Below are positions 1-64,000 of a stretch of DNA of 64,000 nucleotides, piece after piece; within the stretch, counting starts at the first letter, position 1; every line of letters begins with the position of its first letter. The translations under genes and the position numbers were made by a program. The DNA lies in IMG/VR virus record IMGVR_UViG_3300042306_000227, positions 9,268-73,267 of that record, one strand, 5' to 3'. Source of the DNA: a virus. The notes below the pieces were generated by a model, which saw nothing but the letters and a program-made list of their open reading frames with translations, made no database searches and was not told where the DNA came from.

Positions 1-9
1 GGAGGAATC

Positions 10-344: not shown

Positions 345-392
345 AATTGCATTCTTGCAATCCTCTAGTGAAATGAAATGCATGCAATTTTG

Positions 393-400
393 TAGCTTTG
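393..400 (+). promoter_or_regulatory. Bacteroidota -7 promoter box, leaderless configuration
   Basis: TAGCTTTG, 4 nt before the ATG at 405. Confidence 0.7.
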
Positions 401-404
401 CGCC

Positions 405-839: not shown

Positions 840-872
840 AGTTCGCTAACTTTGCTTTTAAACAAAGGGATA

Positions 873-1445: not shown

Positions 1446-1737
1446 TTTAGAAGAAGAGATTAGTCTCTACAGACAAGATGGTATCGTAGGCATGTACTAC
1501 GCATTAAACAAGAAACTCAATGAGCTTACTAAAGCTATTGATGGTGCAGACATTAACTTCTCAGATAAAGACGACAAATCTTTTGATAGGTTGATGAAGG
1601 CAATGGTTGAGTGTAAATACATTGCTGAGAATATGAAATGGCTTCGCACAGAGTTTGCACTTACTGGAGATGAAGCTAAGGATAAGTCACATGCTTCTAG
1701 AAAACCATTAATTGAAACACTTACAAGGAATGCTTAG
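1432..1737 (+). CDS. Hypothetical protein, possible terminase small subunit
   Basis: Helical 101 aa, coupled to neighbours, two genes upstream of terL; assignment is positional only. Confidence 0.45.
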   Translation: MSKYNLEEEISLYRQDGIVGMYYALNKKLNELTKAIDGADINFSDKDDKSFDRLMKAMVECKYIAENMKWLRTEFALTGDEAKDKSHASRKPLIETLTRNA

Positions 1738-2311
1738 TCTTATACAACTAACCAGAACTGAATTAATAGAGATTGTAAGAGATTTAAAAAAACAGCTATA
1801 TGCACTTGAGGCAAAGCGTAAAAGAAATATAGATGTATTAGAGAGAAGAGTTGTTAGGAAGAACGATAAGATAAGAAAGCAAAGTGGAATCATATTTATA
1901 CTAGAGAAAAGACTTTATGGGCAAAAGCTAAAAACAAGCAAGGTAAAGACACAAGCTAAGAATGAGGCGTATGAAGAGGCTACAAATAATATTGTAAACA
2001 AAGAAAAGTCTCTGATTGATATTAGCAAGTACCACATGTCTATACTTGAGTTGTCAGAAGTATTTGGTGAGTCGCCAGCTACAATTGTAGTACTTTTATG
2101 GGCAGGGAGATATGAATACTATTCTAAGAAAGAGTTTAACATCAACTTCCCAGACTCCCCAATAAACTTTGTTAAGTATAATACTACACTGAATAAAAGA
2201 GGGTTATGTAATAAGTGGGATAATAAAAGGTACTACTATTACATATCAGCATCTGGCAAGGATATGATTGCAAGAATTAACAAGTACATAGAAAAACGAA
2301 TGAATGGTTGA
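1730..2311 (+). CDS. Coiled-coil protein with probable C-terminal winged helix
   Basis: N-terminal heptads; C-terminal LNKRGLC..YYISASGKDMI resembles a MarR-type wing; overlaps terL start. Confidence 0.5.
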   Translation: MLSLIQLTRTELIEIVRDLKKQLYALEAKRKRNIDVLERRVVRKNDKIRKQSGIIFILEKRLYGQKLKTSKVKTQAKNEAYEEATNNIVNKEKSLIDISKYHMSILELSEVFGESPATIVVLLWAGRYEYYSKKEFNINFPDSPINFVKYNTTLNKRGLCNKWDNKRYYYYISASGKDMIARINKYIEKRMNG

Positions 2312-4328: not shown

Positions 4329-4353
4329 TATCTTTGTAAAATAAAGAGTTGTA

Positions 4354-6651: not shown

Positions 6652-6669
6652 ACATAAAAACAAAAAACT

Positions 6670-7818
6670 ATGACTACAAATGAAGTAAATCCATTTGATA
6701 CTGGTGCATGGAAAGACGATGAGTCTACCACTCCAGATACTAATGGAGAACAAACTACTACTGACGAAACAAAAGTAGACACACAAGACAAAACCACAGA
6801 AGATGGCGAAGCAAAACCAGACACAACCGCAGTGGATGACACCAAGAAGGATGATGGCGTTAACAACGAAGCAGTTGATAAGACGACTGATGAGGGCGAA
6901 TCTGGAGATACTTCTACGCAGGCTGAACCTGAACTAACATTCAAGAATGAGCTTTCTAAAAGAGTATTTGATGCTATCTTATCTGGCAATTATGCAGATG
7001 TTGCTCCTATTATCTACGAGCAGTCTGTGTTATCAAACTTAGATAAACTAAGCCCTCAAGATGCCGTTAAGTTACAAATGCAGTATGAGAATCCTGACAT
7101 GAGTAGCGAAGATATTGAGAAGGAGTTTAAGGACAGATATGAGTTTGAAGAAGAAAAGGTAGATACAGAATTCATGACTGAAGAGGAAATTAAAGCCCAT
7201 CAGAAAAGAGTTGAGAAAGAAAGAAAGTCTTTTGAAAAAGAGTTAAAGCGTGACGCTAGAGATGCTGTAAGGTTTCTATCTGAAAAAAGAGAAGATATTG
7301 ATATTCCTAACATCAACGAGTACATTAACTCAAAAGCTCCACAAGCTCCAGACAATTCTAAAGAAATAGATGAGTACAATGCTTATATGGAGACTGAAAG
7401 AAAGAAGTATGAAGACTCTATTGAGCCTTCTTTAGAAAAAATTACTCCATTTGAGCTAGAGTTTAAGGATGACGAGGTTAACTTTAAAGTAAACTTTGTG
7501 CCTAACAAGGAAGACTTGGAAGGAATGAAGGATAAGCTAAAAGCATTTACCTTAGAAGACTATTTTGGCCCAGAGTATTATAATCAAGAAAAAGGAGAGT
7601 ATAACACAGCTAAATTAGCTGAAGATATATACTGGAGAGAAAACAGGGAGAAGATTGTTAAGTCAATCGTATCTCAGGCAGTAGCTTCGGCTAAAGCAGA
7701 CATGCTAAAAAAGATTAAAGGCGTAAGCATTGGTGACGCCCCATCATCTTCATCATCTTCAAATACATCTAGTAGAAGTGAGTTAGATAACTTTGTAGAT
7801 AAATTATATAGCATGTAA
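6670..7818 (+). CDS. Capsid scaffolding protein
   Basis: Very acidic disordered N-terminus, helical C-terminus; lies between portal and capsid. Confidence 0.65.
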   Translation: MTTNEVNPFDTGAWKDDESTTPDTNGEQTTTDETKVDTQDKTTEDGEAKPDTTAVDDTKKDDGVNNEAVDKTTDEGESGDTSTQAEPELTFKNELSKRVFDAILSGNYADVAPIIYEQSVLSNLDKLSPQDAVKLQMQYENPDMSSEDIEKEFKDRYEFEEEKVDTEFMTEEEIKAHQKRVEKERKSFEKELKRDARDAVRFLSEKREDIDIPNINEYINSKAPQAPDNSKEIDEYNAYMETERKKYEDSIEPSLEKITPFELEFKDDEVNFKVNFVPNKEDLEGMKDKLKAFTLEDYFGPEYYNQEKGEYNTAKLAEDIYWRENREKIVKSIVSQAVASAKADMLKKIKGVSIGDAPSSSSSSNTSSRSELDNFVDKLYSM

Positions 7819-18789: not shown

Positions 18790-21700
18790 ATGAATTTTGA
18801 ACAAAATTTTAGTCCATTAGACCCCAACAGTGAAGAGTATCAATCAGTAGATAATTTTGGACAAGAGTTAGACCCTCTTGCGCCTAAAAAACCAAAAACA
18901 ATACCAGGTACAAATGTTCCAATAGGGGGCACTGGTATACCTGTTACAAAGGTAGATAAGCCATTTACTCAAATTGAGAATTCTATTAAGTCTGTTAAGA
19001 CAGCTAATACAGAATACCAAAACTTACTTGCCAAAAAAGGTGGTGCAAGCTCTGTTTATGGAGAAGCCCCTGGCGATGAAATAGAGAGAAATAAGCAATT
19101 TACATCTGCGTTAAAATCACAATCTGACGAGTTATTAAAAAAATATTCTAATGATATTAATAAACCTATAGACCAGGTTATTTCTTCTGGTAAATGGGAG
19201 GAATATATAACTGAATCTGGAGGGTTTAATTACGACAAAGCAAGAGGTTACTTTGACTATGTAGTAAAGCAAAATGGTGGTGGAACATACGTAAGAGACT
19301 TAATGATATCTAAGTTTCAAAATGCAGTAGTTGCCAAGAAAAATGAAAAAGATGTAAAGCCATTCTTAAAAGAAGAGATTGCTAAGACTGGATTAAATCT
19401 AGATAAAGATGGCAATGTAGACTTTGCAAGTATTATAGGTACTGAAAACTTAAAAGCTGGCCAAGAGGCTAAATTAAAGTCTATTGCACCTGCTCAATTT
19501 AACAAATTACAGTTAATAGAAAGCGATTCTGAAAAGCAGGTTAATCAATTACTTAATGCATCAAAAGATGTGTTTAAGCAGGAAGAACTTAAGTTTAATA
19601 CATTAAAACAGCAGGTTCAGGCTCAGTTAACAGCTGGTCAAATAACACAAGAAGAGGCACAGAATACAATTAATGATGCACTATCTGGTATTAATCAAAT
19701 GTCAGAGTCATTAAATAATGATTTTCAGAAAGCTGTTAGAGATATCAGAGTAAAGACTTCTTCTAAGTATGCAAGAATATCTAAAGAGATTGGAGCTATT
19801 GGCTCTGGTATGTCATTAGATGATATTATATCTGGTTTACCAAAAGATAAGCAAAAAGAAGTAAGAGATAGAGTTGAAGCTGCTAAGGCGAAGGTAAATA
19901 TTGCATATGAAAATGCTTACTCAAAATTATCTTCTACAAAAAATGAAGGCAAGAAAGCACAAGAATCTATGATAGGACTTGGTGGACTTGCTGGAAAATC
20001 ATTCTTAAGTGGGTGGAATAATGGCTTAGCTTCATTAGGAGGTTATCTTAACATGAACGGAATTGATAACAGTTTTGCAGATTGGTTAAGAGCTCATTCT
20101 ACAACAGGAGAAGAATTAGCTCCAGCACAATACGAGTGGAGTGGTAAAGAATGGTATAAAAGAGGTATCTCTTCTGCTATGCAATCAACAGGTATGAGTC
20201 TACCTACAATGGCACCTACATTAGCTATTACAGCAGCTGGAACAGCAGCTGGAGTACCTGCGGTAGGTCTTGCTGTTATAAATGGTGTATTAGGATATTT
20301 AGGAGAAAGAAACCAAAACTCATTTGAAGTATACGATAAAGAGATTAAGAAAGGTAGTAATCCAAATGATGCTTTAATTAAAGCGGAAACATTTGAAAGA
20401 ATGTCTGTTTCTGAATTGCCATTCCATTTATTAGGAGGTTTAGCTGACGTTAAATTATTCCAACTTGGAGCAAGTGCTACAAAGAGTGCAGGCAAGGGAG
20501 TTAAGTCTATTGTTACAGAATATGGGAAAAGCTTTGGAGGGGAATTATTAGAAGAGTATCCAACTGAGTTATTACAAAACTATAATCAAGCAAAACTTGA
20601 TGGGTATAAAGGTAGCTTATTTGAATATGGAGCATCTAACCCAGAATTATTTTTAGATACATTAGTATCTACATTAGGTCAAGGCAGTGTGTTTGCTGGT
20701 GCTGGTAAAGTATTTGGGGCATTCACAAGCGCAGCCCCAGAATCAAGAATTCAGTTTTATACTGACATGATTCAAAAGAATGGGATTGAATATGCTAAGA
20801 CGGTTGCGAAGAAGTATTATGATTCAGGTATATTAGATGGTGCAACTGCAACTTCTGTGTCAGCTGAAATTGATGATGCTTCTAAAATATATTCAGACTT
20901 ATTAGAGTCTGGTTTAGATGACAATGCTGCTAAATTGTATGTAGCAATGCATTATCAGTCTAAGAGCTTATCTTCAAAAGCGGATAATAAAAAAGAATCT
21001 GTAATGGGTTCTCTTGCTAAGTTACAGCTTGCTAATACACAATCTCAAATGAAGGAATTAGCTAATGGAACACTCCCATATGTTGTTATGGAGATACCAG
21101 GAGGCGAAAACTCTTCAAGAGTAATATCATTACAAGACTTTAACACACTTACTCCTGCTCAAAAAACAAATGTAATACAAGCATCTAACTCAATCAGTGT
21201 AATAAATGATGAAGACGCTAACACGTCATTACAAGAGCAAAAGAAGCAGTTAGGCAATACACCTAATGCTCCTGTTGGTCTATTTACCAATAACATTAAA
21301 ACAACTCAAGATGCCACTCAAGAAAGCACAAGGGAAGAGCAAATCAGCACTGAACAAGGCGGTATCAGCCAATATCAGGGAACTCAACCAATCCAAGAAC
21401 AAGCGACCAATGAAACAAAAGATAGCAATCGCCCTATCAGCGGCACGAAGAAAGTAATAACGCTTCAGAATATAAATGAGATTGAACAGATTGAAGGCAA
21501 TAATACTCAGAAAAAAGTATTAGGCGATGTAAAAAATGTTACGTCATCAATAGCTGGATTTGTTCAGCAAGATACAGGCAGCGAATTAAAGGTTAATATA
21601 CACGACCAAAACTCATTTACACAGGCTGTATTAGAAGCTGGTGGAACACAACAAGATGCAAAGTCAAAAGGGTTCTATATGTCTTCAGATGGAAACATAC

Positions 21701-24700
21701 ATTTAAACATGGACAATGTTTCAGAGGACACAATGTTACACGAAGGATTCCATCCTGTGTTAGACTATATAGAAAAAAATAGTCCAGACACAATGAATAG
21801 CCTTTTTGAGCAATTAAAGTCTATACCTCAAGCTCAAGATTTTGTTCAGAAAGCTGAGGCTGCTTACAATGAGAATGGTAGTATTACTGTTAAAAAAGAA
21901 GCAATTACAGACTTTATAGCTAACGTAGCTAATGGTAACGTTAAGGTTGATGCTACTAATTTAGAGACATTAAAGAATTATATAATAGGGTTGTTAAATA
22001 AGTTAGGGTTAAATCTTAAGCAGAATAGAATTTTAAATTTAGAAACTGCAGAAGACTTAAAGAATCTAGCTACATTTATAACAGAAAAGTTTACCTCTGG
22101 AAGTGAAATAACACAATCAGAACTTGGAAAATTTGTAGAAACCAAACCTACTGCTGAAAATCCAATTGCAAAATCTGGACAACTTCAATTTAGTAAAACA
22201 ATATATGGTGAGTCTGGTATAGAAAAATCTCCAGCACTGGATAGTGACGAGTTTGTTCAAGCTGTTCAAGATGGTAGAATATCTGTATCTAACCCATATC
22301 AATCTTTGATGGGTAAGTTTTTTGGGATTACATTCCCAGATGATTTATTTACTGGAGAACTAAAAGTAAATGGAGAAACTGTAGGTTTTGGGTTCGGTGG
22401 AGTTTTTTATGTTGCAAAATTTGGAGCTAAAGGATTAGCTTGGGCATCAGTTGGCAAGCAGTCAGCAAGCAACTTTACTATACAAGCTAATGCAAGCTTA
22501 AAAAAGAATAACGGAGAAGGTATTATTGTTTTATCAAAAGGAGATGATATTAAGCATGCTACATCTCTTCAAGCAAAGGTTGCATTTATTAATACATTAT
22601 TGAAGTACGCTGAAAACAATAATCAAGGAGAGTCTTTGGTTAAGTCTATAAGAAAAATATATAATATTGGTAACGCAAAGAGTCCTAGTAAAATTATTGA
22701 GTACTTTAATAATTACCTAGCTTCTGGAAGAATGGAATCTGGTCAAACAATGTTTGATGCTAAGGGTTCATTTGACAACTTAATGACTTCTATAATAAAA
22801 GAAGCGCAGCCTGTTATTACAAAAATGTTTCAAGATATGGGGCTTGAAGGAGATACATATTTTGATAAAACTCAATTAAGAAAGGATAATAAAATAGCTA
22901 CTACAAAGGGTTTAAAGTCTTTGTATGCAGACATGCTTCAAGAAGACTTTTTAAAAGGAGCTCCTAAAGGTGGCATATATGCAGCTATTAAATTTAGTAG
23001 CGAGTTAGAATATGTAGTTGATAAATCACATCCTTCTTATCCATATGTAATAAAAACTAAAGATGGCTCTCCTGTTAAATTAGAAGTTTTTAGTAAAACA
23101 TTTAATGCATATGGTAAAGATGTTGCAGTAAAAGGTGTTGAAAGAAATACACAAAATGCATTTGGAGTAGTAACAACAACAAAGCCTAATTTCCAAATTA
23201 ATGAGGAAATGGAAGGCAATAAATCAGAGCATATTTTATCTAATAAGTTAGATGCTTATGAAGCAATATCAAAAGGTAAATCTGCTCCACAATTCCAAAA
23301 AGATATAGTACCTACAGGTGGTGTCCCATCTGTGCCAGGAGAAACAGGAGTTGGAGAAGCAAATCAACCATCAGGATTGCCAGAAAAGAAAAAGTATTCT
23401 TGGGAGAAGGGTACATCTGGTAAGCCAGAGCCAGGAGAGACTATGATTAAGACATCTACTGGAAGATATGTCGCTATTGAGACTATGGCTGGTCAAATGA
23501 TGGATAGAGATAAGGTTATTAATGAAATAAAGAAAGCAGAACCTTCATTCTTTTCAAAGCACATTAGAGATATAAGAACTAAATGGCGTGACAATCAATA
23601 TAATGTATTAAAATCTCTTTCTGAAATAGGCAAAAGCGGGATGCTTGTAAAGCATTATTTACTTACAAGAAATAGCGCATCTGCAACTGCAACTGCAGCA
23701 GTAGAATCTGCTATTAAAGAAATATATGGGAAGATATCAAAGAAGAAAACCTTTAATATCAATGGAGCTAAGGTCACAGAATATGTTTTGTTTAATCAAA
23801 TGATTAATTATCAAAGGGTTATATCAATACAAGAACAAATGAACGATGCTTATAAGACTATGATAAGCTCTGAGCCTGGTTCACAAGAATATAACAAAGC
23901 AAAAAAGAAATTGCTTGATAACAATATGATTGATGTGAATGGTGATTATGTAGGAGAAAGTTTAGATACTGAATTCGCAATGGGTAATGTCACTGCAACT
24001 CAATCAAAAGCTTTGCTTTATGAGATAAGAGAATCAATAGGAGAAGAGTCTTTTGATAAGTTAATGAATGCTTCTGAGAAATATAGCAACCATTTTAATA
24101 AGATGATGAAAGAAAGATATGAGGCTGGTTTAATATCAGAAGACACATACAAATATCTTTCAAAGTTCTACTATGCTCCAGGCAGATACGTTAGTGATGT
24201 TTTAATTGACCCTATACTATCTATTGCAAAAACAACTCCAACATATCAAAGTACTTCTATATTGAAAATGAGGAGTCTTGCTGGAGGTACAGAAAGATTA
24301 AATCTAAATGATTACGAAGGATTATTAAGAGCTGTAACATATGCGTCTGAATATTCAATAGCAGAGAATAGGGCAACAAATAGATTCTATGACTTAATAT
24401 CAGAAAATAAAACACAGTTCAATAGTAGTGGTATTAGACTTGGTACAAAATTAGTTCCTATTGAAGCAGAAGGCCCAGTTAAGTTTGATATTATTGATGA
24501 AAAGGTAATAGCTATACAAGAAGGTAAAGCAAAGTCTGCATTAGAATTACCTAGTGGACAAAAGCAATTGCCTTATAAAGGTATTCAAAAGCCATCAGAT
24601 ATGCCAGTCGGTAAGTATATTCAACCAATTGATATTGTACTAGATGAAGATGGAAATAAGTTTAGAGTAGTATACGAAACTCCTAAAGTAGGTGAAGATA

Positions 24701-26745
24701 TTATTAAAACATATTATAATGGTCAACAATATGATATTATAGTTCCAGCTTGGTTTGCTGATGCATGGTATAACAGGAATATGGCTACAGGAGATACGTC
24801 TTCCTTAATAGCTAAAATAACTGGAGCAAATGTTTTAAGGCTAGTAGCTACTGGTATTAACCCTGTATTCGGTATTGCTCAAATTGTACCAGATACAATA
24901 TCAGCATATGCATCCACACTAGAAGAAAGAAAACTTCCTTTGCTTATAGACTACCCTAGGTTCTTTATAAAGACATTAGCTGCTTCAAGGGATATTATGA
25001 AAAAAACAGATGATTTTAAAGAAGCGACTAAATATGGAGCTACTACAAATTTCTACAACGGAGGTTCTGTTTCTTTTGAAAGAGGATTGATGGGTCTAGA
25101 GGATAAGTCTTTAGAGAAGGTTGTAGAAGAGTGGAATGTGCCTGTGTTAAAACAGTATGTTATGGGGTCTAAAAGAATCACAGAGACTACAGAACAAATG
25201 ACAAAAGTTGCTATATATAAAGAGATAAGAGACAGAAAAATAAAAGAATTTAAGCAGGAGAATAATAGAGAGCCAAACTCGCAAGAACTAGAAGACATAA
25301 AAATAGAGTCTGGGTCTATGGCAAGAGGTACTGCTGATTTCCATAGAAAGGGTTCTAGCGCATCTAATGTGAATAAGGTTATACCATACTTAAATGCAGC
25401 TATACAAATTAACAGAGCTGTATTAAGGTCTATTAAAAAGAATCCAATGAAAGCTGTATACTACTCTATGGAGTATATGGGTCATGCTGCTGTATTTAGT
25501 TTAATGGCTATGGGAGCTGGTGATGATGATGAATTAAAAGAAAAGAAAAGAAGGGCATACTTAGGTCTTAGTGAATTTGAGAGGGATAATAACTTTTTAA
25601 TGTACTTTAATGAGTCAGAAGGAAAGTTTGTAGCTCAAAAACTACCTTCATTCTTAGTCCCATTTAATGCATTTTCAAGAAGGCTTACAGAAAGAATATA
25701 CCTTGAGAAAAAAGAGATTACACCAAAAGACATTCGTGAAATTGCGTCTAGTGTAGCAGATATGTTCCCTTTATTGCAAATATTAAATGTTGAAAAAACT
25801 TTATCTAGAAACCCAGCATATAGCTTTGCAGCAAAACTATTCTTCAATAGAGACCCTTATAGACAAGAAGCGGTAGCTAAATACGATGAGTCTACAAAAA
25901 ACTACCTAGAAGGAGCTATGATAGGGAAAGAGCAATCTTCTGCATTTTCAAGAAAAATAGGTGAGTTAACAAAAAATGGAGTGCCATTATTCCCAGAAGG
26001 TATTTCTCCAAAAAGACTTGATGCGGCACTTGGCTCTATACCATTCCAATCTAACCCAATATCAGCATTCCCATTATTTGCGGCAGATGCAACAAGTATA
26101 ACAATGGAAGAATTTGAAGAAAAGTACGGCAAGAATGCTGCTAGTATCATTCTGTCTGCAAGTGGAATCTCAAAAAGATACTTTAAGGGCGGAAGTAGAA
26201 TAAATCAAAATTTAGCTGGATTATCACTTGAGAATATAAAAGACAGAGGCGAAATGAAAAACAAGATAGCTGAAATGATTCTGCCAAAGTTTGAAGAATT
26301 TACAAAGAATATGACTAGAGAAGATGCATTTGTAAAGGCAACTGAAGATTTTATATCAAATGAGTTTGATAAGTTAACGGTTGAGCAAAAGATAATAGCT
26401 CAAGGATATATAACTGGCGACCTTAGAGGTAGAATATTTAATGTTACAAAAGACAAGCAAGTATCTCAAATATTAAATATGGAAGACCCTAATGCTAAGA
26501 TAGATGCTATATTGTACACAATGAAGAATGTTAGAACCACAGATAGCTCAAGAGATGCATTTATAAACGAGCTTGTTCAAAATGGGATAACAGCTAACGA
26601 GTCTTTTGGTAGAATGTTAGCAGTAAGAGGTGAACAAGAACTTCCAAACCCAGAGACTGGTGTAATGGAGAAGAATAACAGGTATGAAAAAGAGGTAGGA
26701 GAGCTGTTGAAGAAACTGACAATAATCTTTGAAAAGTCTCAATAA
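18790..26745 (+). CDS. Giant internal virion protein with zincin-like HExxH and LPD38-like C-terminal region
   Basis: 2651 aa; TMLHEGFH at 21739-21753; DFHRKG..IPYLNAAIQ..ERDNNF pattern near the C-terminus. Confidence 0.7.
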   Translation: MNFEQNFSPLDPNSEEYQSVDNFGQELDPLAPKKPKTIPGTNVPIGGTGIPVTKVDKPFTQIENSIKSVKTANTEYQNLLAKKGGASSVYGEAPGDEIERNKQFTSALKSQSDELLKKYSNDINKPIDQVISSGKWEEYITESGGFNYDKARGYFDYVVKQNGGGTYVRDLMISKFQNAVVAKKNEKDVKPFLKEEIAKTGLNLDKDGNVDFASIIGTENLKAGQEAKLKSIAPAQFNKLQLIESDSEKQVNQLLNASKDVFKQEELKFNTLKQQVQAQLTAGQITQEEAQNTINDALSGINQMSESLNNDFQKAVRDIRVKTSSKYARISKEIGAIGSGMSLDDIISGLPKDKQKEVRDRVEAAKAKVNIAYENAYSKLSSTKNEGKKAQESMIGLGGLAGKSFLSGWNNGLASLGGYLNMNGIDNSFADWLRAHSTTGEELAPAQYEWSGKEWYKRGISSAMQSTGMSLPTMAPTLAITAAGTAAGVPAVGLAVINGVLGYLGERNQNSFEVYDKEIKKGSNPNDALIKAETFERMSVSELPFHLLGGLADVKLFQLGASATKSAGKGVKSIVTEYGKSFGGELLEEYPTELLQNYNQAKLDGYKGSLFEYGASNPELFLDTLVSTLGQGSVFAGAGKVFGAFTSAAPESRIQFYTDMIQKNGIEYAKTVAKKYYDSGILDGATATSVSAEIDDASKIYSDLLESGLDDNAAKLYVAMHYQSKSLSSKADNKKESVMGSLAKLQLANTQSQMKELANGTLPYVVMEIPGGENSSRVISLQDFNTLTPAQKTNVIQASNSISVINDEDANTSLQEQKKQLGNTPNAPVGLFTNNIKTTQDATQESTREEQISTEQGGISQYQGTQPIQEQATNETKDSNRPISGTKKVITLQNINEIEQIEGNNTQKKVLGDVKNVTSSIAGFVQQDTGSELKVNIHDQNSFTQAVLEAGGTQQDAKSKGFYMSSDGNIHLNMDNVSEDTMLHEGFHPVLDYIEKNSPDTMNSLFEQLKSIPQAQDFVQKAEAAYNENGSITVKKEAITDFIANVANGNVKVDATNLETLKNYIIGLLNKLGLNLKQNRILNLETAEDLKNLATFITEKFTSGSEITQSELGKFVETKPTAENPIAKSGQLQFSKTIYGESGIEKSPALDSDEFVQAVQDGRISVSNPYQSLMGKFFGITFPDDLFTGELKVNGETVGFGFGGVFYVAKFGAKGLAWASVGKQSASNFTIQANASLKKNNGEGIIVLSKGDDIKHATSLQAKVAFINTLLKYAENNNQGESLVKSIRKIYNIGNAKSPSKIIEYFNNYLASGRMESGQTMFDAKGSFDNLMTSIIKEAQPVITKMFQDMGLEGDTYFDKTQLRKDNKIATTKGLKSLYADMLQEDFLKGAPKGGIYAAIKFSSELEYVVDKSHPSYPYVIKTKDGSPVKLEVFSKTFNAYGKDVAVKGVERNTQNAFGVVTTTKPNFQINEEMEGNKSEHILSNKLDAYEAISKGKSAPQFQKDIVPTGGVPSVPGETGVGEANQPSGLPEKKKYSWEKGTSGKPEPGETMIKTSTGRYVAIETMAGQMMDRDKVINEIKKAEPSFFSKHIRDIRTKWRDNQYNVLKSLSEIGKSGMLVKHYLLTRNSASATATAAVESAIKEIYGKISKKKTFNINGAKVTEYVLFNQMINYQRVISIQEQMNDAYKTMISSEPGSQEYNKAKKKLLDNNMIDVNGDYVGESLDTEFAMGNVTATQSKALLYEIRESIGEESFDKLMNASEKYSNHFNKMMKERYEAGLISEDTYKYLSKFYYAPGRYVSDVLIDPILSIAKTTPTYQSTSILKMRSLAGGTERLNLNDYEGLLRAVTYASEYSIAENRATNRFYDLISENKTQFNSSGIRLGTKLVPIEAEGPVKFDIIDEKVIAIQEGKAKSALELPSGQKQLPYKGIQKPSDMPVGKYIQPIDIVLDEDGNKFRVVYETPKVGEDIIKTYYNGQQYDIIVPAWFADAWYNRNMATGDTSSLIAKITGANVLRLVATGINPVFGIAQIVPDTISAYASTLEERKLPLLIDYPRFFIKTLAASRDIMKKTDDFKEATKYGATTNFYNGGSVSFERGLMGLEDKSLEKVVEEWNVPVLKQYVMGSKRITETTEQMTKVAIYKEIRDRKIKEFKQENNREPNSQELEDIKIESGSMARGTADFHRKGSSASNVNKVIPYLNAAIQINRAVLRSIKKNPMKAVYYSMEYMGHAAVFSLMAMGAGDDDELKEKKRRAYLGLSEFERDNNFLMYFNESEGKFVAQKLPSFLVPFNAFSRRLTERIYLEKKEITPKDIREIASSVADMFPLLQILNVEKTLSRNPAYSFAAKLFFNRDPYRQEAVAKYDESTKNYLEGAMIGKEQSSAFSRKIGELTKNGVPLFPEGISPKRLDAALGSIPFQSNPISAFPLFAADATSITMEEFEEKYGKNAASIILSASGISKRYFKGGSRINQNLAGLSLENIKDRGEMKNKIAEMILPKFEEFTKNMTREDAFVKATEDFISNEFDKLTVEQKIIAQGYITGDLRGRIFNVTKDKQVSQILNMEDPNAKIDAILYTMKNVRTTDSSRDAFINELVQNGITANESFGRMLAVRGEQELPNPETGVMEKNNRYEKEVGELLKKLTIIFEKSQ
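21311..21457 (+). CDS. Overprinted small basic protein (48 aa) nested in the giant gene
   Basis: MPLKKAQGKSKSALNKAVSANIRELNQSKNKRPMKQKIAIALSAARRK; A-rich start context aacattaaaacaactcaagATG. Confidence 0.65.
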   Translation: MPLKKAQGKSKSALNKAVSANIRELNQSKNKRPMKQKIAIALSAARRK

Positions 26746-56724: not shown

Positions 56725-57132
56725 TTAAGATTGCAAATCTAATGCATTGCTTAATTCATCTTCTATTTTAGACACGAATAATTTATAATTATTAATTGCA
56801 TACACTGAATTGGGGTTAGATGCCATGTAACTAATTGATTGACAGCTCACTCCTAAATAGTTAGCCAAATGGGAAACTTTTATGGCGTACCTATTTATAA
56901 GTATAAAAACTATCATCTTTTTTGCTTGCTTGGCATCTGATGATTTTCTCCATGAAATGATTTCTTCCACAGAAACATTATAAATTTCAGTAATACGATT
57001 GACAACATATTGAATAATTTTTTGATGAATGTCATCATCCCCAATTTTCTTGAGGATGACAACACATCTTTTATTATCCTTTAGGCATTCTTGCTTTAGC
57101 TCATCAATAAGCCTTTGGATTTTGTCTGACAT
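56725..57132 (-). CDS. Second DnaA domain IV-like HTH protein
   Basis: YNVSVEEIISWRKS..AKKMIVFIL..LANYLGVSCQSISY; start moved to ATG 57132. Confidence 0.6.
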   Translation of the reverse strand: MSDKIQRLIDELKQECLKDNKRCVVILKKIGDDDIHQKIIQYVVNRITEIYNVSVEEIISWRKSSDAKQAKKMIVFILINRYAIKVSHLANYLGVSCQSISYMASNPNSVYAINNYKLFVSKIEDELSNALDLQS

Positions 57133-57425
57133 TAGATTGTTATTTTGATACATTTAACTACAGACTTGGTTTTCTTTGGCTCTCTTTCTAGGATATTAGC
57201 TGATAGCCTGTTACCCCATTTTTTAACCACCACAAACCTTTCATTGCTCACAGGTTCCTCAAACATCAGGTCAAACTTGCTCCTATGCTTGTTGTGGTGC
57301 TGTTTGCCATCAGACTTGTTCCATGCTAGGAATGATTTTTGTCCTGCTACTAAACCTAAAATTAGGTCTTTTGTCTCTCCGATTTGGTTAACTTGTAAAC
57401 CATTTTTTGTTCTTAGATTTTTCAT
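57132..57425 (-). CDS. Hypothetical protein
   Basis: 97 aa, A-rich start region. Confidence 0.55.
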   Translation of the reverse strand: MKNLRTKNGLQVNQIGETKDLILGLVAGQKSFLAWNKSDGKQHHNKHRSKFDLMFEEPVSNERFVVVKKWGNRLSANILEREPKKTKSVVKCIKITI

Positions 57426-57579
57426 TTGTTTTTATTTTTTGGTTAATGAAAATTATTGTTTTAAGAAATAGTACATCAATCCGAATATGAAATACATGGG
57501 TATCATCATCCATATATTATCAGATGCGCTTATGTCTTTGTCCCATAGAAACGCACCAATACCCAATGCTATTGCGACC

Positions 57580-57870
57580 TCAATCACCTTTTTTATTTTC
57601 TTCATCCTTGAATATGTTTTTTAAAATTTCCTCACCTTCCATCTCTCGTTCAAATTGCCTGTAGCCATCGTTCATAGATAGTGTCATTGCTTTGCTTAAT
57701 ACTAGCAAATCAATTACGCTCTTACCTGATAAATCGCTACATGCTTTGATTAGATGCGATGCTTGTAAACATCTTACCTTTTTAAACTGCTCGTCTTTTG
57801 ACATAACTGCTTCTAGTGTTAGCTGTGATGCTATGCTGACAATTAGTTCAACGCCTTTCAAATTCTCCAT
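57580..57870 (-). CDS. Hypothetical protein
   Basis: 96 aa. Confidence 0.5.
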   Translation of the reverse strand: MENLKGVELIVSIASQLTLEAVMSKDEQFKKVRCLQASHLIKACSDLSGKSVIDLLVLSKAMTLSMNDGYRQFEREMEGEEILKNIFKDEENKKGD

Positions 57871-58036
57871 TGTTGTATGTTGTGTTATTAATTAATCCTG
57901 TTCCTTTGCAATCTTTACATTCGTATGCTTTTTCATAATCTAAACCTTGCTCCTCACTTCCTGCATAGTCTAAATAGAATCCATCACCCTTGCATGTGGG
58001 ACATGTGATTGTGATTTGTACATGCGCTTGTTTCAT
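57848..58036 (-). CDS. DnaJ-type zinc finger protein
   Basis: CPTCKGDG..CKDCKGTG. Confidence 0.7.
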   Translation of the reverse strand: MKQAHVQITITCPTCKGDGFYLDYAGSEEQGLDYEKAYECKDCKGTGLINNTTYNNGEFERR

Positions 58037-58230
58037 GATGTTTCGTTTATTTCGTTTAAGAATGCTTTTTCTTTGATAGGGTCACTCACCCATAGGTTAT
58101 ATAACTCCTCTAGTTGTTTATATCTATCTTCTGAATACCACGCATTGTGATACAATTCTGCGATAAATATTTGTCTTTCTCTAGGTGTCAAATCTGTGAA
58201 TGTTGATACCTGTTGTTTTAATATGCTCAT
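58033..58230 (-). CDS. Hypothetical early protein
   Basis: 65 aa, coupled. Confidence 0.55.
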   Translation of the reverse strand: MSILKQQVSTFTDLTPRERQIFIAELYHNAWYSEDRYKQLEELYNLWVSDPIKEKAFLNEINETS

Positions 58231-58237
58231 TGTTTTT

Positions 58238-58540
58238 TTAATTTAAATTGTCAAATGCCCTGTTAATTATATCGTTTATTGCTTGGATGTTAGGCTTATG
58301 TTCATCCTCATCAAAATCAATTGTATTGATTAACTCTTTAGCACGATGATTGATGATAGTTATGGCTGTCTGTATCTCTGCATCATCCCATAGTTGTTCT
58401 ATCTTAGTGACATACAGGATGGATGTTATTACAGCATCCATGAAATCATTGTAGTCATCATCGTTCTGAATAGCTACATCTACTACTATCTTAGTTAATA
58501 TATTTATCAGGACTTCCTGACCTGTCATGCTCATGCTCAT
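58238..58540 (-). CDS. Acidic hypothetical early protein
   Basis: 100 aa, Asp-rich. Confidence 0.55.
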   Translation of the reverse strand: MSMSMTGQEVLINILTKIVVDVAIQNDDDYNDFMDAVITSILYVTKIEQLWDDAEIQTAITIINHRAKELINTIDFDEDEHKPNIQAINDIINRAFDNLN

Positions 58541-58752
58541 ACGATATGATTTATTTTTTTATACTTGTTGTTACATAAATTCACTACAGAAAAATACAAT
58601 ACATCATTCTCATGAACTCCCATGTCACTAAACACCCACCACTTGTCATGTCCCTGATTATTGTATTCATGTGTAGCATAATACTTGTTCTCATCCATTG
58701 ATACTTCAAAATGTTCTTTGGTATCAATCTTAATTAAATTTACTTTGTCCAT
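58537..58752 (-). CDS. Hypothetical early protein
   Basis: Start moved to ATG 58752, just after the upstream stop. Confidence 0.5.
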   Translation of the reverse strand: MDKVNLIKIDTKEHFEVSMDENKYYATHEYNNQGHDKWWVFSDMGVHENDVLYFSVVNLCNNKYKKINHIV

Positions 58753-58753
58753 G

Positions 58754-58957
58754 TTAATTGGTTTTTGTTGCGATGAATAAAATATGTACATAAGGTGAAT
58801 CATAAGGTACATTCAATTGGTCACATACTTGGTTCCATGACTCAATGTCTTGTACAAAATCTTCAGGATATAGTGTAAGATACTTTGGTGTGGGAGCTAT
58901 GTCCCACTTGCCAATAGTTAATACTTTCTGCTGTTGCTCTGTTAAAAATTTTTCCAT
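58754..58957 (-). CDS. Hypothetical early protein
   Basis: 67 aa. Confidence 0.55.
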   Translation of the reverse strand: MEKFLTEQQQKVLTIGKWDIAPTPKYLTLYPEDFVQDIESWNQVCDQLNVPYDSPYVHILFIATKTN

Positions 58958-58959
58958 GT

Positions 58960-59967
58960 TTATATGTTTTCATAGTTATCAAATGAATTGTTATATTCCT
59001 CTATCTCTGAGTAGATAGGCTTAGCACCTATGTACATCTTCTCACATTCACTGCATAGATGGAATCCATCGTATCTGTGTGATGCCACATTTACATTACA
59101 TTCATCGCAATGGTACAATCCTTCAACTTCTTTTTCAAATTGTCCTGTCTCTGTACCCATCAATGTAAGGTATCCGTAATCCTTAGCACATGATGTGCAA
59201 CAATCAAACTTCTTCTCGTATGATGTCTTGTATACCCAATCATCACAATCTAGGCAATGGATGTAGTCACCTGCCTGATGTTTAATTTCTGCTGAGTCTC
59301 TGTCAATATGAAAGTCTAACTTGCTTTGTGTAGCACCTTTGTCCCAATCATAGTTGTACTTGTTAGTCTTCTTGCTGTCATACTTGTGAATCTTAGTGCC
59401 ACCATAATCTAACCATTCGCTAGGCTTGTAGTTGCTGTTGCTGAACAATACACCTGTCTCTGTATCTGTAACGCATGCATGCTCGTTAACGATATATACC
59501 TTGTTGTCAATAGTCAGGAATGCAAACTTGCTACCTACAATGTCTCTGCCTATCAAATCCATGATAGCCTTCTGTTTGTAAAAGTCTCTAGGTAACTTGC
59601 GTAATACCTGCTCCATGTATTGGTATGTGTCACTGCGCTTGGCTGTTGATGGGAATTGTCTGATGATACCATTGTGAACGAATACCAAACCTTTGTTGAT
59701 AAGAAATGGATGTGTATTCTCATAGTCTACATTACTGCCTGTGGCAATCCTGCCATGACCTATGAAATGTGATTGAGGATATTTAGCAACAGCATCCTGA
59801 TACTTATTCCATAATTGCTTTGCATCAGGCTTTGCTGACTTAACGATGACTAGCCTGTCACCTGTGGTGTATACGAATCCGAATCCTTGAGGATTGTTTT
59901 CTATGATGGTGTTGAAATGGTCTTGCTTTAAGACTTGCTTAGGTTTTTTTACAAAGAATGTACACAT
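58960..59967 (-). CDS. Class II (Ntn) glutamine amidotransferase with C-terminal Cys clusters
   Basis: Catalytic Cys2; NPQGFG; HGRIATG; NTHPF; HNGII; SDT; four CxxC motifs; promoter TAACTTTG at 59991-98. Confidence 0.9.
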   Translation of the reverse strand: MCTFFVKKPKQVLKQDHFNTIIENNPQGFGFVYTTGDRLVIVKSAKPDAKQLWNKYQDAVAKYPQSHFIGHGRIATGSNVDYENTHPFLINKGLVFVHNGIIRQFPSTAKRSDTYQYMEQVLRKLPRDFYKQKAIMDLIGRDIVGSKFAFLTIDNKVYIVNEHACVTDTETGVLFSNSNYKPSEWLDYGGTKIHKYDSKKTNKYNYDWDKGATQSKLDFHIDRDSAEIKHQAGDYIHCLDCDDWVYKTSYEKKFDCCTSCAKDYGYLTLMGTETGQFEKEVEGLYHCDECNVNVASHRYDGFHLCSECEKMYIGAKPIYSEIEEYNNSFDNYENI

Positions 59968-60083
59968 AGTTTTGATTATTTGATTGTTTACAAAGTTAGT
60001 TATAATATTTTGTTTGACAAAATTTGTAGGGGATTAAATTAATCTAGGAATAGATATGTCGCTTCCCCTACAGCCATGAAAAA

Positions 60084-62237
60084 TTAAAAAGGATTTTGAG
60101 ATGAATCAGTTAATAAGTTTAGACTCAATTCATGTTCATTGAATATATACACGAATCTATTACCATCTAGTCTCTTAGCTAGAGCGCATATATATGTGCC
60201 ATCCTCGTGTCTGATAAAGTTCATGTAGTACCTTTCAGATGACAAAGTAGATAGCTTAAATTCAGCCCTGAAACACATGTTTGTTGTATCTGTGAATCTA
60301 GATGTGGTAATTAGCATTGCAAATATTCTGTTGAAAAATGACATCTCGCTCTGAGAATATGTTTGACATACTTGCATATCATTGTCTCTGCATGAATCAA
60401 ATAATCTTTCTGTCTGTGAATTAATAACCGATACAGGCAATGTCTCATAGTTTAATACAGAGCTAATCACACCACCAATAGTATTCAATGCTTTTTTCAC
60501 CATGATACTAAAGTTACTGCTGTATTCACATGGTGTGCCTAATGATACCATGCTGTTTGGCGCAAAGAATTGACATAGCTGTTCATTTGTCGCTCTCAAA
60601 TTGTTTACATAAATTTCATCTGAAAGGAATGCTGTATTCAATTCTGTTCTTGACCTTGATGATAGTTCTCTGTATCTTACTACATCCTGAGCGAATGATG
60701 GTTCTTCTGTCACATCTGTAGAACGCTCCTGTCTGTATGAATCATCCACATTATTTGCGCTGTATGTACCTAATGTAGGCAAATCATCTGAGAATCTACT
60801 AGCATCAAAACTTCCACCTGTCACCTGTGTATCAGGTAAGTCTACATGGAATACTCTTTCTCTAGGTGCTTCTGTAGGTACTTCTGTAGTCTCTGTAGGA
60901 GTAATGATACTCATGCTCATCATCTGCTCAACTTTCTTAATCGTGTTAATTGTAACGATACCACATTTGTACTTAGCTGATAATGTGATGAATGTCTTGA
61001 ACTTGTTCTTGAACTTATCCATGTCACCATTGCACACTACATTAAGCATAAAATTATATAGCTTAGAATTCTTTTTAGCCATCTCAAGGATAACCTTGTT
61101 ATGTGTCTTACCATACAGGTCATTTAATACTATGCGCATCAAATCAATTCTGTTCTTAAGGATGGTGTTGCTCTTAATTGCAGGGAATATTCTGAATTCA
61201 AGAATCTCATTGTTCTTCACATAGAATGATTGGTATTTTCTAGGTGAGCGAAGGTATGTACCAAACTGCTGTGCTTGGCAATAGCTGTTGTTTAAACGCT
61301 TCTCATAGATTGAATAGAATATTGGTAAACTTCCTTTCACTTTCTTAAGGATGTCCTTAGATTGTACACCATTGATTGATACATTGATGTGACCGCCACA
61401 TCTGTCGCTAGTTTCCGCATCCAATATGTCTCTAACAGGTGCAAGTACTTCATTGATGACTGCATCATTGTTCAATGGCAATACAGGAGAAATCAATTCA
61501 AATCCACCATCACCTAAACTTCCATCTCTCTCTTTCTTAAATCCTGTCTCAAACGCTAGTTTAATAGCATTCTCTCTGTCCCTGAATGTATAGTCTTGCT
61601 TCTCTGCTTCAAAACCAAAGTTAACTGCACCTAGAGTCTTGTCCATGTACTTTGTGAAATTAGATGCAATCTTTGGATGCCATGCTGAATAATGATAACC
61701 TAGCAATGTATCTGTTCCCCAAATTTGGCTGTCATCTGTAACCTTTACAAGTCTTCCAACTTCCACCAATGACTCTGTTAAATCAGGTGCAATCATATCA
61801 TCACTGATAACAATAACTTTAATCTTGTATCCGTTATGCTCTCTGTTTTCATCAATGTAATACTTCATACCGAATTCATTTACTAGCAAATCAAATAGTG
61901 AACTGCTGATATGAATTTCTGTATCATTTAGCTTTAATCTTATTCTGCTTCCACCTGAATGTGTTGAATACAATTGTGGTACGATTATTCTTCCGCTGTT
62001 CATTTTAGCTAGTCTGAACATGTTAGCATATCTGCTTTCACTATTCGTTCCTGATGAGTAAACGCTCTCGTAATCATAGACTGCATCACTTGTCATTGAA
62101 CTTGATGTCATGACTACAAACTTTTGGATGTACTTGTTAGAGAATGCATCCAATGGTAATAAAAATTTGTTTCTGCTTCTCTCATTTACAGGTGTCAATA
62201 CAGAGAATTTTCTAGGTTGTTTTTTAACTTGATTCAT
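60084..62237 (-). CDS. Amidoligase (COOH-NH2 ligase / glutamine-synthetase-like fold) with flanking domains
   Basis: FGFEAE..DGSL..GFELISP..CGGHIN..LEFRIF; start moved to ATG 62237. Confidence 0.8.
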   Translation of the reverse strand: MNQVKKQPRKFSVLTPVNERSRNKFLLPLDAFSNKYIQKFVVMTSSSMTSDAVYDYESVYSSGTNSESRYANMFRLAKMNSGRIIVPQLYSTHSGGSRIRLKLNDTEIHISSSLFDLLVNEFGMKYYIDENREHNGYKIKVIVISDDMIAPDLTESLVEVGRLVKVTDDSQIWGTDTLLGYHYSAWHPKIASNFTKYMDKTLGAVNFGFEAEKQDYTFRDRENAIKLAFETGFKKERDGSLGDGGFELISPVLPLNNDAVINEVLAPVRDILDAETSDRCGGHINVSINGVQSKDILKKVKGSLPIFYSIYEKRLNNSYCQAQQFGTYLRSPRKYQSFYVKNNEILEFRIFPAIKSNTILKNRIDLMRIVLNDLYGKTHNKVILEMAKKNSKLYNFMLNVVCNGDMDKFKNKFKTFITLSAKYKCGIVTINTIKKVEQMMSMSIITPTETTEVPTEAPRERVFHVDLPDTQVTGGSFDASRFSDDLPTLGTYSANNVDDSYRQERSTDVTEEPSFAQDVVRYRELSSRSRTELNTAFLSDEIYVNNLRATNEQLCQFFAPNSMVSLGTPCEYSSNFSIMVKKALNTIGGVISSVLNYETLPVSVINSQTERLFDSCRDNDMQVCQTYSQSEMSFFNRIFAMLITTSRFTDTTNMCFRAEFKLSTLSSERYYMNFIRHEDGTYICALAKRLDGNRFVYIFNEHELSLNLLTDSSQNPF

Positions 62238-62265
62238 GGCTGTGAATTTTTGGTTATTGGTTAAA

Positions 62266-62457
62266 TTATTTGATTGATTTTTGAGCATTGTCATAGTACA
62301 TGTAACTTCCTAATGCACCTGTCGTAAACACAAAGCATATGATTGCTAGATTGACAGCTGTTGGTTCCATTGTCATGAAACCTAATACAGGAATGAACAT
62401 TGTCACGATTGACAATAAAACTGCTAATACCATGTTGATTTTGTAATAATTACTCAT
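62266..62457 (-). CDS. Early two-TM membrane protein
   Basis: Two hydrophobic helices. Confidence 0.6.
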   Translation of the reverse strand: MSNYYKINMVLAVLLSIVTMFIPVLGFMTMEPTAVNLAIICFVFTTGALGSYMYYDNAQKSIK

Positions 62458-62692
62458 TTGATTAAGATTTACTGATTGATTAAATTGTTATAAATACAGG
62501 TTCTTTTTTGCTGTCACTTTCGTATACATAAAAAAAGTAATTAGGGAAATAGCTTTGCAACCTTTCTACTTCTTTCTCTGCCTCATGTTTAGTTTTATAA
62601 TAGCCATGTGAACCAATGTTTCCATAGCCTGAATCCTCAATGACATGATAATACTTCCTCATTTGATTAAGATTTATGATTGATAAAATTGT
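62453..62692. repeat. ~35-bp direct repeat over two early start regions
   Basis: CTCATTTGATTAAGATTTA(C)TGATTGATWAAATTGT at 62453-62488 and 62658-62692. Confidence 0.75.
62480..62662 (-). CDS. Hypothetical early protein (60 aa)
   Basis: MRKYYHVIEDSGYG..; true start lies in the repeated start-region block. Confidence 0.6.
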   Translation of the reverse strand: MRKYYHVIEDSGYGNIGSHGYYKTKHEAEKEVERLQSYFPNYFFYVYESDSKKEPVFITI

Positions 62693-62846
62693 GAACGATG
62701 GTGAATAAAGATGGCGCAAAGTTTCCCTGTAATTCATGCAGTACAATTGTTCCATCTGTGTTGATAGCTTCTACCTGATACACATCAAATTCATGTGTGT
62801 AATCATCTGTGAACGATACATAATCGTATACTTTAAATTGTCCCAT
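62667..62846 (-). CDS. First early gene (59 aa, not in ORF track)
   Basis: My translation: MGQFKVYDYVSFTDDYTHEFDVYQVEAINTDGTIVLHELQGNFAPSLF..; A-rich start region just after the ribozyme. Confidence 0.65.
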   Translation of the reverse strand: MGQFKVYDYVSFTDDYTHEFDVYQVEAINTDGTIVLHELQGNFAPSLFTIVHNFINHKS

Positions 62847-62865
62847 GTTAAATGGTTTTTTAATT

Positions 62866-62917
62866 ACTATTTCATCCTTTCGGAATCATCAGCACACATA
62901 ACACATGTGTGTATAGC
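62866..62917 (-). ncRNA. Hammerhead ribozyme, type III topology
   Basis: GCUAU-A / CACACAU-guguu-AUGUGUG / CUGAUGA / UUCC-gaaa-GGAU / GAA-AUAGU; predicted cleavage after AUA, between 62912 and 62911. Confidence 0.85.
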
Positions 62918-62949
62918 ATCGCAATCCCTAGTATGCTCATCTGTATGCT

Positions 62950-63178
62950 CTATGTCTGTTCCTGTACTTAGATAACGATTTACATCGTGATGGGTACATT
63001 ATCTGTAGCTACATGCAGTCTATTGTATAAAAGTTCATGCTTTCAAGCTAACTACTAGCATGATGTGTATGCATTCAATCATGGCGTAGTGTACTTGGTG
63101 TGTCTCTGTAGCCTGTCTACTTTTGTTCCTGTACTTATAGTGTGCTTGTCAGCAGTTTTGGGTACATTGTCCGTAGAT
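62950..63178 (-). ncRNA. Duplicated structured RNA motif in the early leader
   Basis: Two copies of CUACrGAyAAUGUACCC-[variable hairpin]-UAAGUACAGGAACA. Confidence 0.55.
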
Positions 63179-63251
63179 GTCGTTGATTGTCAATCAGTTA
63201 TGTATTGGATATACATGTAACGCATTGATTATCAATAACTTAGGCGTAAAC

Positions 63252-63288
63252 TTCAAAGAACTTGTCGTGCATTGACATCACAATACTA
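63252..63288 (-). promoter_or_regulatory. Early promoter followed by a hairpin and boxA-like site
   Basis: TAGTATTG (-7 variant), then UGUC-N7-GACA hairpin, then GUUCUUUGAA. Confidence 0.55.
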
Positions 63289-63420
63289 CATCATGTATGT
63301 ATACAAACATCAATTGCACCCAAATATTTTTCAAGATATTTTTTTAGACACAGATAACACAATGTGAATCAATCAGATGCAACAGAAAAAAAATTTTAAA
63401 AAAAGTTATCAGGACAGCAA

Positions 63421-63835
63421 ACAGGGATAATTGCAAACGTTTGCGGAAATATTTGCGGAAGAAATACACAGGACAAAATCAGGGACATATATAGTATGTG
63501 ATTGTTAACAGACAACAGAAGGAAACAGGACACAATGTATACAGGAGAAAACACAGGAGAGAATAGTTATAACTAAGAACTTAGTCACACACAGGAGAGA
63601 CACAGGAAGACAGGCAAAGGTCATTTCGGATTATTACACAGGGACAAAATACACAGGAGATAGGTAAGCATGACAGATACACAGGAGAAAAAGCATATAG
63701 GTGTATGGGCAATGTTACGCATACAGGCTTACATAGGCATCTGATAACACTATAACACATTGATTGATAATGAATTAGGTTAGTAACCTACATTAGGATT
63801 GACCTACCCACTCAGGCAAAGCAGTTTCCCACAGG
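63421..63835. repeat. Co-oriented ACAGG repeat field in the terminal non-coding region
   Basis: 13 ACAGG copies counted, including four exact ACACAGGAGA. Confidence 0.75.
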
Positions 63836-64000
63836 TTAGGCATGGCCTGTCATTAATACTGGAACCCTACGCTATCAGATTGATGCCCTTATTCTTAATA
63901 GGCTGGAATGGGCAAATGTGTATGCAGATTGCAAGGTGCAGAAAGACCTACCCATGTGCTGAAAGCATATGTACCCAGTCTGCAGAACGTTAAGTTGCTG

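Follow-up and report, generated by a model that had tools for sequence, protein, structure and literature searches.

The nut sites (boxA/boxB) of phage lambda and the put sites of HK022 are small antitermination RNAs that occur twice per phage, in early transcripts. Each sets a short hairpin with a GNRA-like loop beside constant single-stranded sequence, and the copies differ from one another by compensated stem changes. IS200/IS605 elements and their short derivatives (PATEs) carry subterminal hairpins and lack terminal inverted repeats. In T4-type phages, PeSLs (promoter-early stem-loops) are described as a strong sigma-70 promoter combined with a stable, often G/C-rich terminator hairpin, present many times per genome and flanking ORFans (PMC2839356, PMC4122927). 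For the crAss-like phage phi14:2, abundant ncRNAs were reported to arise from long intergenic regions from the earliest time point, and that study reports no common motif upstream of the early transcripts (bioRxiv 10.1101/2020.03.07.982082).

The element described here is a ~300-bp non-coding cassette (62912..63206, minus strand). Coordinates refer to the window, a 64,000-nucleotide stretch of phage DNA comprising bases 9268–73267 of a 73,267-bp virus record. The cassette carries two related stem-loops, copies A and B, and its nearest described behaviour is that of the PeSL cassettes of T4-type phages. Like PeSLs, it presents short conserved non-coding stem-loop motifs in a variable early region of a phage genome, bordering the insertions, deletions and replacements that distinguish close relatives, where they may supply homology for module exchange. 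The cassette is nevertheless not a PeSL, since the defining promoter and terminator features are lacking: a sigma-70-like site is found in copy B only, so that the promoter match is not conserved, and there is no terminator-like hairpin (0 terminator-like sites in 62400–64000). PeSLs lie in many copies at the boundaries of indels; here there are just two copies, with no ORF between them and with unpaired sequence as their constant part. The cassette does form an indel between close relatives in two lineages, and one of its junctions lies in a repeated palindrome.

By analogy with nut and put, the locus presents two GNNA-loop hairpins beside constant unpaired sequence, with compensated stems, in what would be an early leader. 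Unlike nut and put, which lie in two divergent operons, the two copies stand in tandem in one leader, and the element is absent from the closest relative (L127) and lies at an operon end in the second phage that carries it (L134). The likeness to IS200/IS605 elements and PATEs would consist in a pair of similar, imperfect hairpins that point the same way and lie close to either end of a short mobile segment. However, the segment here is single-copy, its internal loops are large and constant, its junction falls in a shared palindrome, and neither a Y1 (HUH) transposase (no match to PF01797 in the record) nor further copies, in the related records and bacterial genomes scanned, were found. As to a clean insertion, L127 has a replacement rather than an empty site, and homology between L134 and its relative L140 ends inside the shared palindrome. 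Finally, long non-coding stretches lie at the early end of a crAss-related genome, as in phi14:2, the likeness being one of position, and the evidence for transcription here is one short contig.

Genome and setting

Bases 1–6641 of the virus record are identical to bases 66073–72713, and the last 554 bp are ~96% identical to the head copy, so the genome unit is ~66,072 bp, assembled past its own start. Compared end to end, record 1–7205 and 66073–73267 (window 56806–64000) share 6641 bp repeated exactly and then ~560 bp at ~96%, and a ~50-bp patch is wholly different between them (window 63447–63500 versus record 6642–6700). Both alleles of this patch are present in lake runs, the loose ends of X11 at 63456 and 63485 matching the other allele. 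The genome is that of a 66-kb podophage, crAss-related and of Bacteroidota type. One ORF, of 1297 aa, has matches to families of the Crassvirus muzzle protein (PF25731, 2.6e-18; PF25729, 4.2e-07), and a portal PHROG match and a primase/helicase are also present. The start codons, read by eye, are without Shine-Dalgarno sequences. An ORF of 2651 aa (18790–26745, plus strand) occupies the position where crAss-like phages carry a virion RNA polymerase; it matches no PHROG family and no significant Pfam family, its best Pfam match being below threshold (PF22750, 17.9 bits against a cut-off of 26), and it contains no DFDxD or DxDxD motif.

Bacteroidota-type promoters (TTTG-N17-21-TAnnTTTG) occur eight times in the genome unit, against 2.5 ± 1.6 in 100 shuffles, and seven of the eight lie 10–70 nt upstream of co-oriented ORFs. 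The scan of the genome unit placed none of them upstream of the first leftward operon, so that the promoter there would be of an unrecognised kind, and no host-type promoter was found upstream of the cassette on the minus strand. The motif lies within a ~1.4-kb non-coding region between the leftward gene block, whose first ATG is at 62846 (minus strand), and the rightward block, which opens with an ORF at record 7470 (plus strand).

Distribution of the cassette

The second occurrence of the cassette is on L134, a 5-kb metagenome contig that encodes a tryptophan halogenase and a major tail protein. By blastn the two cassettes align over 300 columns at 92% identity (L134 ~3337–3636), with weak similarity continuing to ~62899, and beyond the cassette neither blastn nor tblastx found any other similarity between L134 and the window. 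Homologues of the neighbouring gene of L134 are on contigs of 4–237 kb, so L134 derives from a different tailed phage, probably a large one. In both phages the cassette is co-oriented with its neighbouring genes; here it occupies the leader of the leftward operon, in L134 the 3' end of an operon. It was found in lake and freshwater runs of 16 studies. No coding frame in the cassette is kept between the window and L134, where 1- and 2-nt indels shift the only ORFs, and the possibility of a coding sequence was dropped on this ground.

The closest relative, L127 (a 67,211-bp record), has a neighbouring 736-aa protein that is 92% identical, and its DNA is 94% identical up to window 63293. The segment 62838..63292 (minus strand) has no counterpart in L127; 295 other bp stand there instead and mostly code for the N-terminal part of a longer first gene, and a search for the cassette in the whole 67,211-bp record reached E 0.06 at best, over 20 nt. 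The first leftward gene of the window (62667–62846, minus strand; 59 aa) corresponds to the C-terminal part of a 135-aa L127 protein (L127 5426–5833), and the place of the N-terminal 76 codons of that protein is taken in the window by the non-coding segment. L140, in turn, is 86% identical to L134 over 2.6 kb up to a palindrome and lacks the cassette, the homology between the two stopping inside the palindrome, ATAACTGATTGATAATCAAC. The cassette is thus a discrete, dispensable and non-coding unit in a region evolving by module exchange. In each of two unrelated phage lineages some close relatives have it and others do not, and it appears to have moved horizontally between these lineages.

In the window, a degenerate copy of the family to which the palindrome belongs, AAC-NN-ATTGA-NNN-TCAAT-NN-GTT, marks the 5' edge of the cassette (63182..63199), the point where the homology of L134 and L140 ends, a second and better copy with the core ATTGATAATCAAT lies 20 nt upstream of the cassette (63219..63241), and a third copy is found in the intergenic region at 63763–63775. 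The palindrome family is repeated after the neighbouring gene in L140 (3377–3466), L141 (3315–3363) and L142 (3350–3415), each time with a T run behind it. Standing just past the neighbouring gene and ahead of this run, the palindrome looks like a terminator in L141 and L142. The family is common to the crAss-related phage and unrelated large tailed phages, is often in tandem directly behind a gene and is terminator-like, possibly bidirectional.

The sequence-only reading matched the motif to no ribozyme or riboswitch, and a search of the whole window against Rfam bore this out with no matches at the gathering score. With a permissive E-value, the region 62700–64000 gave only two C/D snoRNA models, at 63192–63320 beside the motif (E 0.63 and 4.2), and no tRNA or tmRNA was found. 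A loose pattern of the motif matched at least 118 loci in viral contigs and, read in register, none of these has the extended flanks. Stricter patterns gave one match in viral contigs, a chance match inside a GC-rich ORF of L128, and three in metagenome contigs, of which only L134 is related. The three pattern matches in representative bacterial genomes, where we estimate that ~5 would be expected by chance, share the pattern alone. Neither a stem-free pattern nor the central 25-mer had a match in viral contigs, and blastn against GenBank phages gave no match. A covariance model built from the two copies, which had been suggested as a route to homologues in phage metagenomes, recovered nothing new in the window, L127, 33 loci surrounding homologues of the L134 neighbouring gene or four whole related records. 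The known distribution is very narrow, comprising two phage lineages.

Two related stem-loops

The motif had been proposed from the letters of the window as an RNA element repeated twice, and the sequences quoted for it were confirmed on the minus strand, with copy B at 63116..63178 and copy A at 62949..63011 (~63 nt each). The word TGTTCCTGTACTTA, said to be identical at 62957 and 63124, has exactly two exact occurrences in the 64-kb window, among 15 matches with three or fewer mismatches. Taken alone, this 14-mer is the weaker evidence, as exact repeats of at least 14 nt arose in 7 of 500 dinucleotide shuffles. A repeat scan paired 62949–62970 with 63116–63137 (86%) and 62991–63008 with 63159–63176 (89%) at a spacing of 167/168, and the two copies are identical at 16 of 18 positions in the 5' block, 9 of 20 in the centre and 14 of 15 in the 3' block. 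In a local alignment with the part that contains copy A, copy B scores 26, compared with 11.4 ± 1.6 and a maximum of 18 in 300 shuffles. The similarity of the copies is far above chance, and they recur jointly in the unrelated contig L134. The constancy of the internal loops was likewise borne out, the unpaired flanks and internal loops being the most constant part of the copies.

A degenerate third copy had been suspected between A and B. The covariance model finds none there at E≤10, and the two short words that hinted at it, GCTACAGA and AAGTACA, are not conserved in L134. The centre of the cassette between the copies (63056..63084, minus strand) is identical in the window and L134, has no variants listed in the four runs examined and can form a hairpin, CAUGAU-13 nt-AUCAUG. 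A micro-ORF of 15 codons (MIECIHIM...) starts in this centre at 63082 and has 12 codons in L134.

On the minus strand of copy B, the outer stem UCUAC/GUAGA pairs 63177–63173 with 63120–63116, the inner stem UGUAC/GUACA pairs 63166–63162 with 63134–63130, and the apical hairpin UGCU-GACA-AGCA spans 63154–63143. In copy A, the inner stem UGUAC/GUACA pairs 62998–62994 with 62967–62963 and the apical hairpin ACGAU-GUAA-AUCGU spans 62988–62975, with no conserved outer stem. Each copy thus has a 5-bp inner stem and an apical hairpin (4 bp in B, 5 bp in A) with a GNNA tetraloop, and the outer stem is present in copy B only, helix 1 being 75% paired over four sequences. The chance of at least four and at least five Watson–Crick pairs in random central segments of the same length and composition, calculated post hoc, is 0.018. 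The apical stems had been described as swapped in sequence and yet both paired. The pairing stands, but the hairpins align in register, with two identical pairs (G-C and U-A) and two compensatory ones in the four-sequence alignment, and they are therefore diverged homologues rather than swapped or unrelated inserts.

Thermodynamic support for the fold is poor to marginal. The stems of 5 and 4–5 bp correspond to −8.7 to −11.8 kcal/mol. Copy B has its energy minimum in the proposed fold (−11.8 kcal/mol, z −2.31); copy A (z −0.09) has a different minimum-energy fold on the minus strand. Taken as a whole, the cassette gives z values of −0.17 (minus strand) and +0.67 (plus strand) for the window, and of +0.67 and +1.26, respectively, for L134.

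Natural variants of the stems

Variant sequences from metagenomes bear directly on the pairing. In X11 record 10 (one contig at a depth of 4.4, read as a list of differences), copy A has 62964 G>A together with 62997 C>T and 62966 A>G together with 62995 T>C, which turn the inner stem from TGTAC/GTACA into TATGC/GCATA with two pairs altered on both sides. If 17 substitutions fell at random on the 229 nt that the contig covers, at least two compensatory double changes among 14 pairs would arise with a probability of 8e-5. In copy B, 63133 A>G is carried by L134 and by X16, X17 and X11 variants, and in L134 and X16 record 19 a C inserted behind 63163 pairs with the 63133 G, so that inner pair 4 changes from A-U to G-C with a bulged A. 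Altogether, the inner stem has three compensatory changes among the metagenome-contig variants. The outer stem of copy B in L134 and X16 has a C-G pair changed to U-G. Among the differences listed for the stretches that the four runs cover, a list that leaves out nine, none falls in a loop or an apical hairpin of copy A or copy B. Covariation on the four full sequences alone is not significant, the observed score being reached in 94 of 500 shuffles.

The internal covariation noticed in the sequence-only reading is thus joined by natural variants of the inner stems of both copies, and the stems are maintained through compensatory change. Because the inner stems change in a compensatory manner and the apical pairs of A and B are compensated between the copies, base pairing is under selection. 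Within one variant genome the stems of A and B differ from each other, which would argue for pairing and against either a half-site for a shared protein or pairing between the copies. For this reason, an operator for a dimeric protein (TGTAC-N26-GTACA) and a long-range interaction between the copies were both dropped.

Strand and transcription

The folding molecule would be RNA of the minus strand. On this strand the two loops read GACA and GUAA (GNNA), the internal loops are A/C-rich, and the outer-stem change of L134 converts a C-G pair into U-G, a change that would read as the mismatch C-A on the plus strand. The co-orientation of the element with its neighbouring genes in both phages points the same way. 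In favour of the plus strand, the inner helix there extends to 8 bp in both copies, two G-U pairs included.

A 154-nt contig from one metatranscriptomic run spans 63004–63157, although the contig alone does not establish transcription. It ends 2 nt from the start that a sigma-70-like site would predict, a coincidence that was given no weight because the end of a contig is not that of an RNA and host promoters belong to a different type. A sigma-70-like site, TTGACA-16-GACAAT, overlaps copy B with a 10/12 match and has no equivalent in copy A. On the plus strand, copy B contains TTG-N20-TACTTTTG, which matches the Bacteroidota -7 box and is likewise absent from copy A. Promoter-like sites are not enriched in the region (6 against 7.7 ± 2.2). 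DNA hairpin early promoters of the N4 type, read by a virion RNA polymerase, were also considered and were dropped on the grounds that L127 lacks the cassette and that there is no large ORF with DFDxD.

Possible roles of the cassette

On the evidence above, the element is real, structurally constrained, mobile and non-coding. Our working interpretation, which we hold tentatively and at somewhat less than even confidence, is that of a horizontally exchanged non-coding RNA or leader cassette in which the two paralogous stem-loops are protein-recognition or processing modules. In this phage the minus-strand RNA would form part of the leftward operon's leader, and in the other phage it would be attached to an operon's 3' end. 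The two modules would act as recognition sites of combined sequence and shape, in which a protein reads the constant loops and the stems merely present them. Candidate partners are a nuclease that processes the RNA, a factor for stabilisation or antitermination, and a host factor that the modules would titrate. The cassette may have spread by recombination at short conserved intergenic hairpins, that is by PeSL-type shuffling with no transposase. A bolder version, to which we give little credence, is that the cassette is a new small mobile phage RNA, a non-coding 'moron' traded between unrelated lake phages. Its modules would then capture, or be cut by, a specific protein, for example as a decoy for a host defence or RNA-binding factor, or the cassette might be a protein-independent antitermination element for the Bacteroidota RNA polymerase.

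The modules might instead act as DNA, as hairpins in single-stranded or supercoiled DNA that form the ends of a small non-autonomous mobile element of the IS200/IS605 or PATE kind, or that are sites of recombination or replication priming. A discrete and patchy cassette, 92% identical between unrelated phages, with two similar hairpins in direct orientation near its ends, no terminal inverted repeats (by eye) and an AT tract and origin-like iteron array 250 bp away would suit such an element, and compensatory changes maintain the stems on both strands. However, the genome is without a Y1 transposase, each genome has one copy of the cassette, and there is none in the records of four large relatives or in the scanned representative bacterial genomes. 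The stems are short (5 + 4–5 bp) around large and constant bubbles, the hairpin feet lie 35–50 nt from the cassette ends, and a junction within a conserved palindrome fits homologous exchange better than transposition. The GNNA loops and the U-G change also favour RNA. We regard a DNA-level role as unlikely. A transcription-signal cassette resembling a PeSL, in which the constant blocks are promoter or attenuator signals, the hairpin is an attenuator and the repeats serve mainly as homology for shuffling, seems similarly improbable. Gain and loss of cassettes are concentrated in this region, copy B overlaps the 10/12 sigma-70-like site and matches the Bacteroidota -7 box on its plus strand, and PeSLs are described as promoter and stem-loop cassettes that mediate shuffling (PMC2839356, PMC4122927). 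Yet neither promoter-like match is kept in copy A, and the recognisable promoters of this phage are TTTG-N17-21-TAnnTTTG and not sigma-70-like. The region shows no enrichment of promoter-like sites and no terminator-like sites, the copies are only two, flank no ORF and have no further counterpart in the genome, and compensatory stem changes are not expected of promoter boxes.

A further possibility is that the copies were left behind neutrally by a local duplication and serve no function today, or that they mimic a CRISPR repeat as an RNA anti-CRISPR. A mimic of this kind would be nearly identical to a CRISPR repeat of the host, its short native loop included. The copies are few, weakly folding and dispensable, and the outer-stem arms of copy B, AUCUAC...GUAGAU, resemble those of the Cas12a repeat hairpin. 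Two independent sets of compensatory changes and loops that are invariant among strains argue for constraint, however, and the outer stem, which copy A lacks, would close a loop of 52 nt in copy B. The one look-alike in related loci, ATCTACTGTTGTAGAT in L172, lies in an apparently uninterrupted coding frame (by eye). The Cas12a-repeat look-alike was dropped on these two counts, being confined to copy B and, in L172, apparently coding, and we consider a neutral or mimic origin rather improbable. Least of all do we expect a self-cleaving ribozyme or ligand-sensing riboswitch present in two copies, the new class that the sequence-only reading implied. Constant unpaired nucleotides, variable but compensated stems and the absence of a match to any known family would agree with such an RNA. 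Against it stand a fold of marginal stability with only 9–10 base pairs and no multi-helix core, junction or pseudoknot, copies that lie 167 nt apart, and the want of association with a gene class, the cassette being in a leader in one phage and at an operon 3' end in the other. Its extremely narrow distribution, two lineages, and its dispensability in the closest relative L127 weigh in the same direction, and this reading is very improbable.

The exchange of non-coding cargo between unrelated phages is little studied, especially in Bacteroidota phages, and to our knowledge almost nothing is known of RNA-level regulation in these phages. The cassette offers a compact case, with two modules in ~300 bp, natural variants whose stems stay paired, and natural phage strains that either have or lack the cassette. 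If it is a functional RNA, it would provide a testable non-coding 'moron' and would show, beyond the T4 group, how modules are exchanged at conserved hairpins between genes; if it is not, it would be an ordinary leftover of mosaicism.

Neighbouring repeats and modules

A sequence ATCTACTGTT(G/A)TAGAT, resembling the Cas12a repeat hairpin, is present in three viral contigs, L170–L172 (for example L172 4735–4750), in an apparently uninterrupted coding frame (by eye), where it is probably coincidental.

Downstream of the cassette on the minus strand, a second cassette of 205 bp with a 60-codon ORF (MRKYYHVIEDSGYG..., 62444–62676, minus strand) lies between 28-bp direct repeats that are 93% identical. 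L127 lacks it, as do contigs of X10, X11 and X16 (loose ends at 62649), and one other X11 contig, record 9, covers it. It is a gene-cassette polymorphism at a repeated junction.

On the other side, an array of at least eight iterons with the core ACAGGA occupies 63460–63700 (plus strand). Six of them are ACACAGGA, the consensus is ~AYACAGGAGA, and six of the eight plus-strand occurrences of ACACAGGA in the window fall within the array. The array adjoins an AT tract (63390–63420) and two tandem AAAyrTTTGCGG repeats (63435–63458), and it looks like an origin or a regulator array. The 3' block of the motif (GTACAGGAAC, minus strand) holds the iteron core ACAGGA in inverted orientation, and L134 has ACACAGGAAG directly after its cassette.

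Just beyond the window end, at record 7207–7250, lies a G+C-rich inverted repeat (GGGTCGGCCGCCC...GGGCGGGCCGCCC) in a genome that is otherwise 36% G+C. Short repeats of the type TACGA(A/T) follow it, upstream of the first rightward gene, and this hairpin region is also present in L127.
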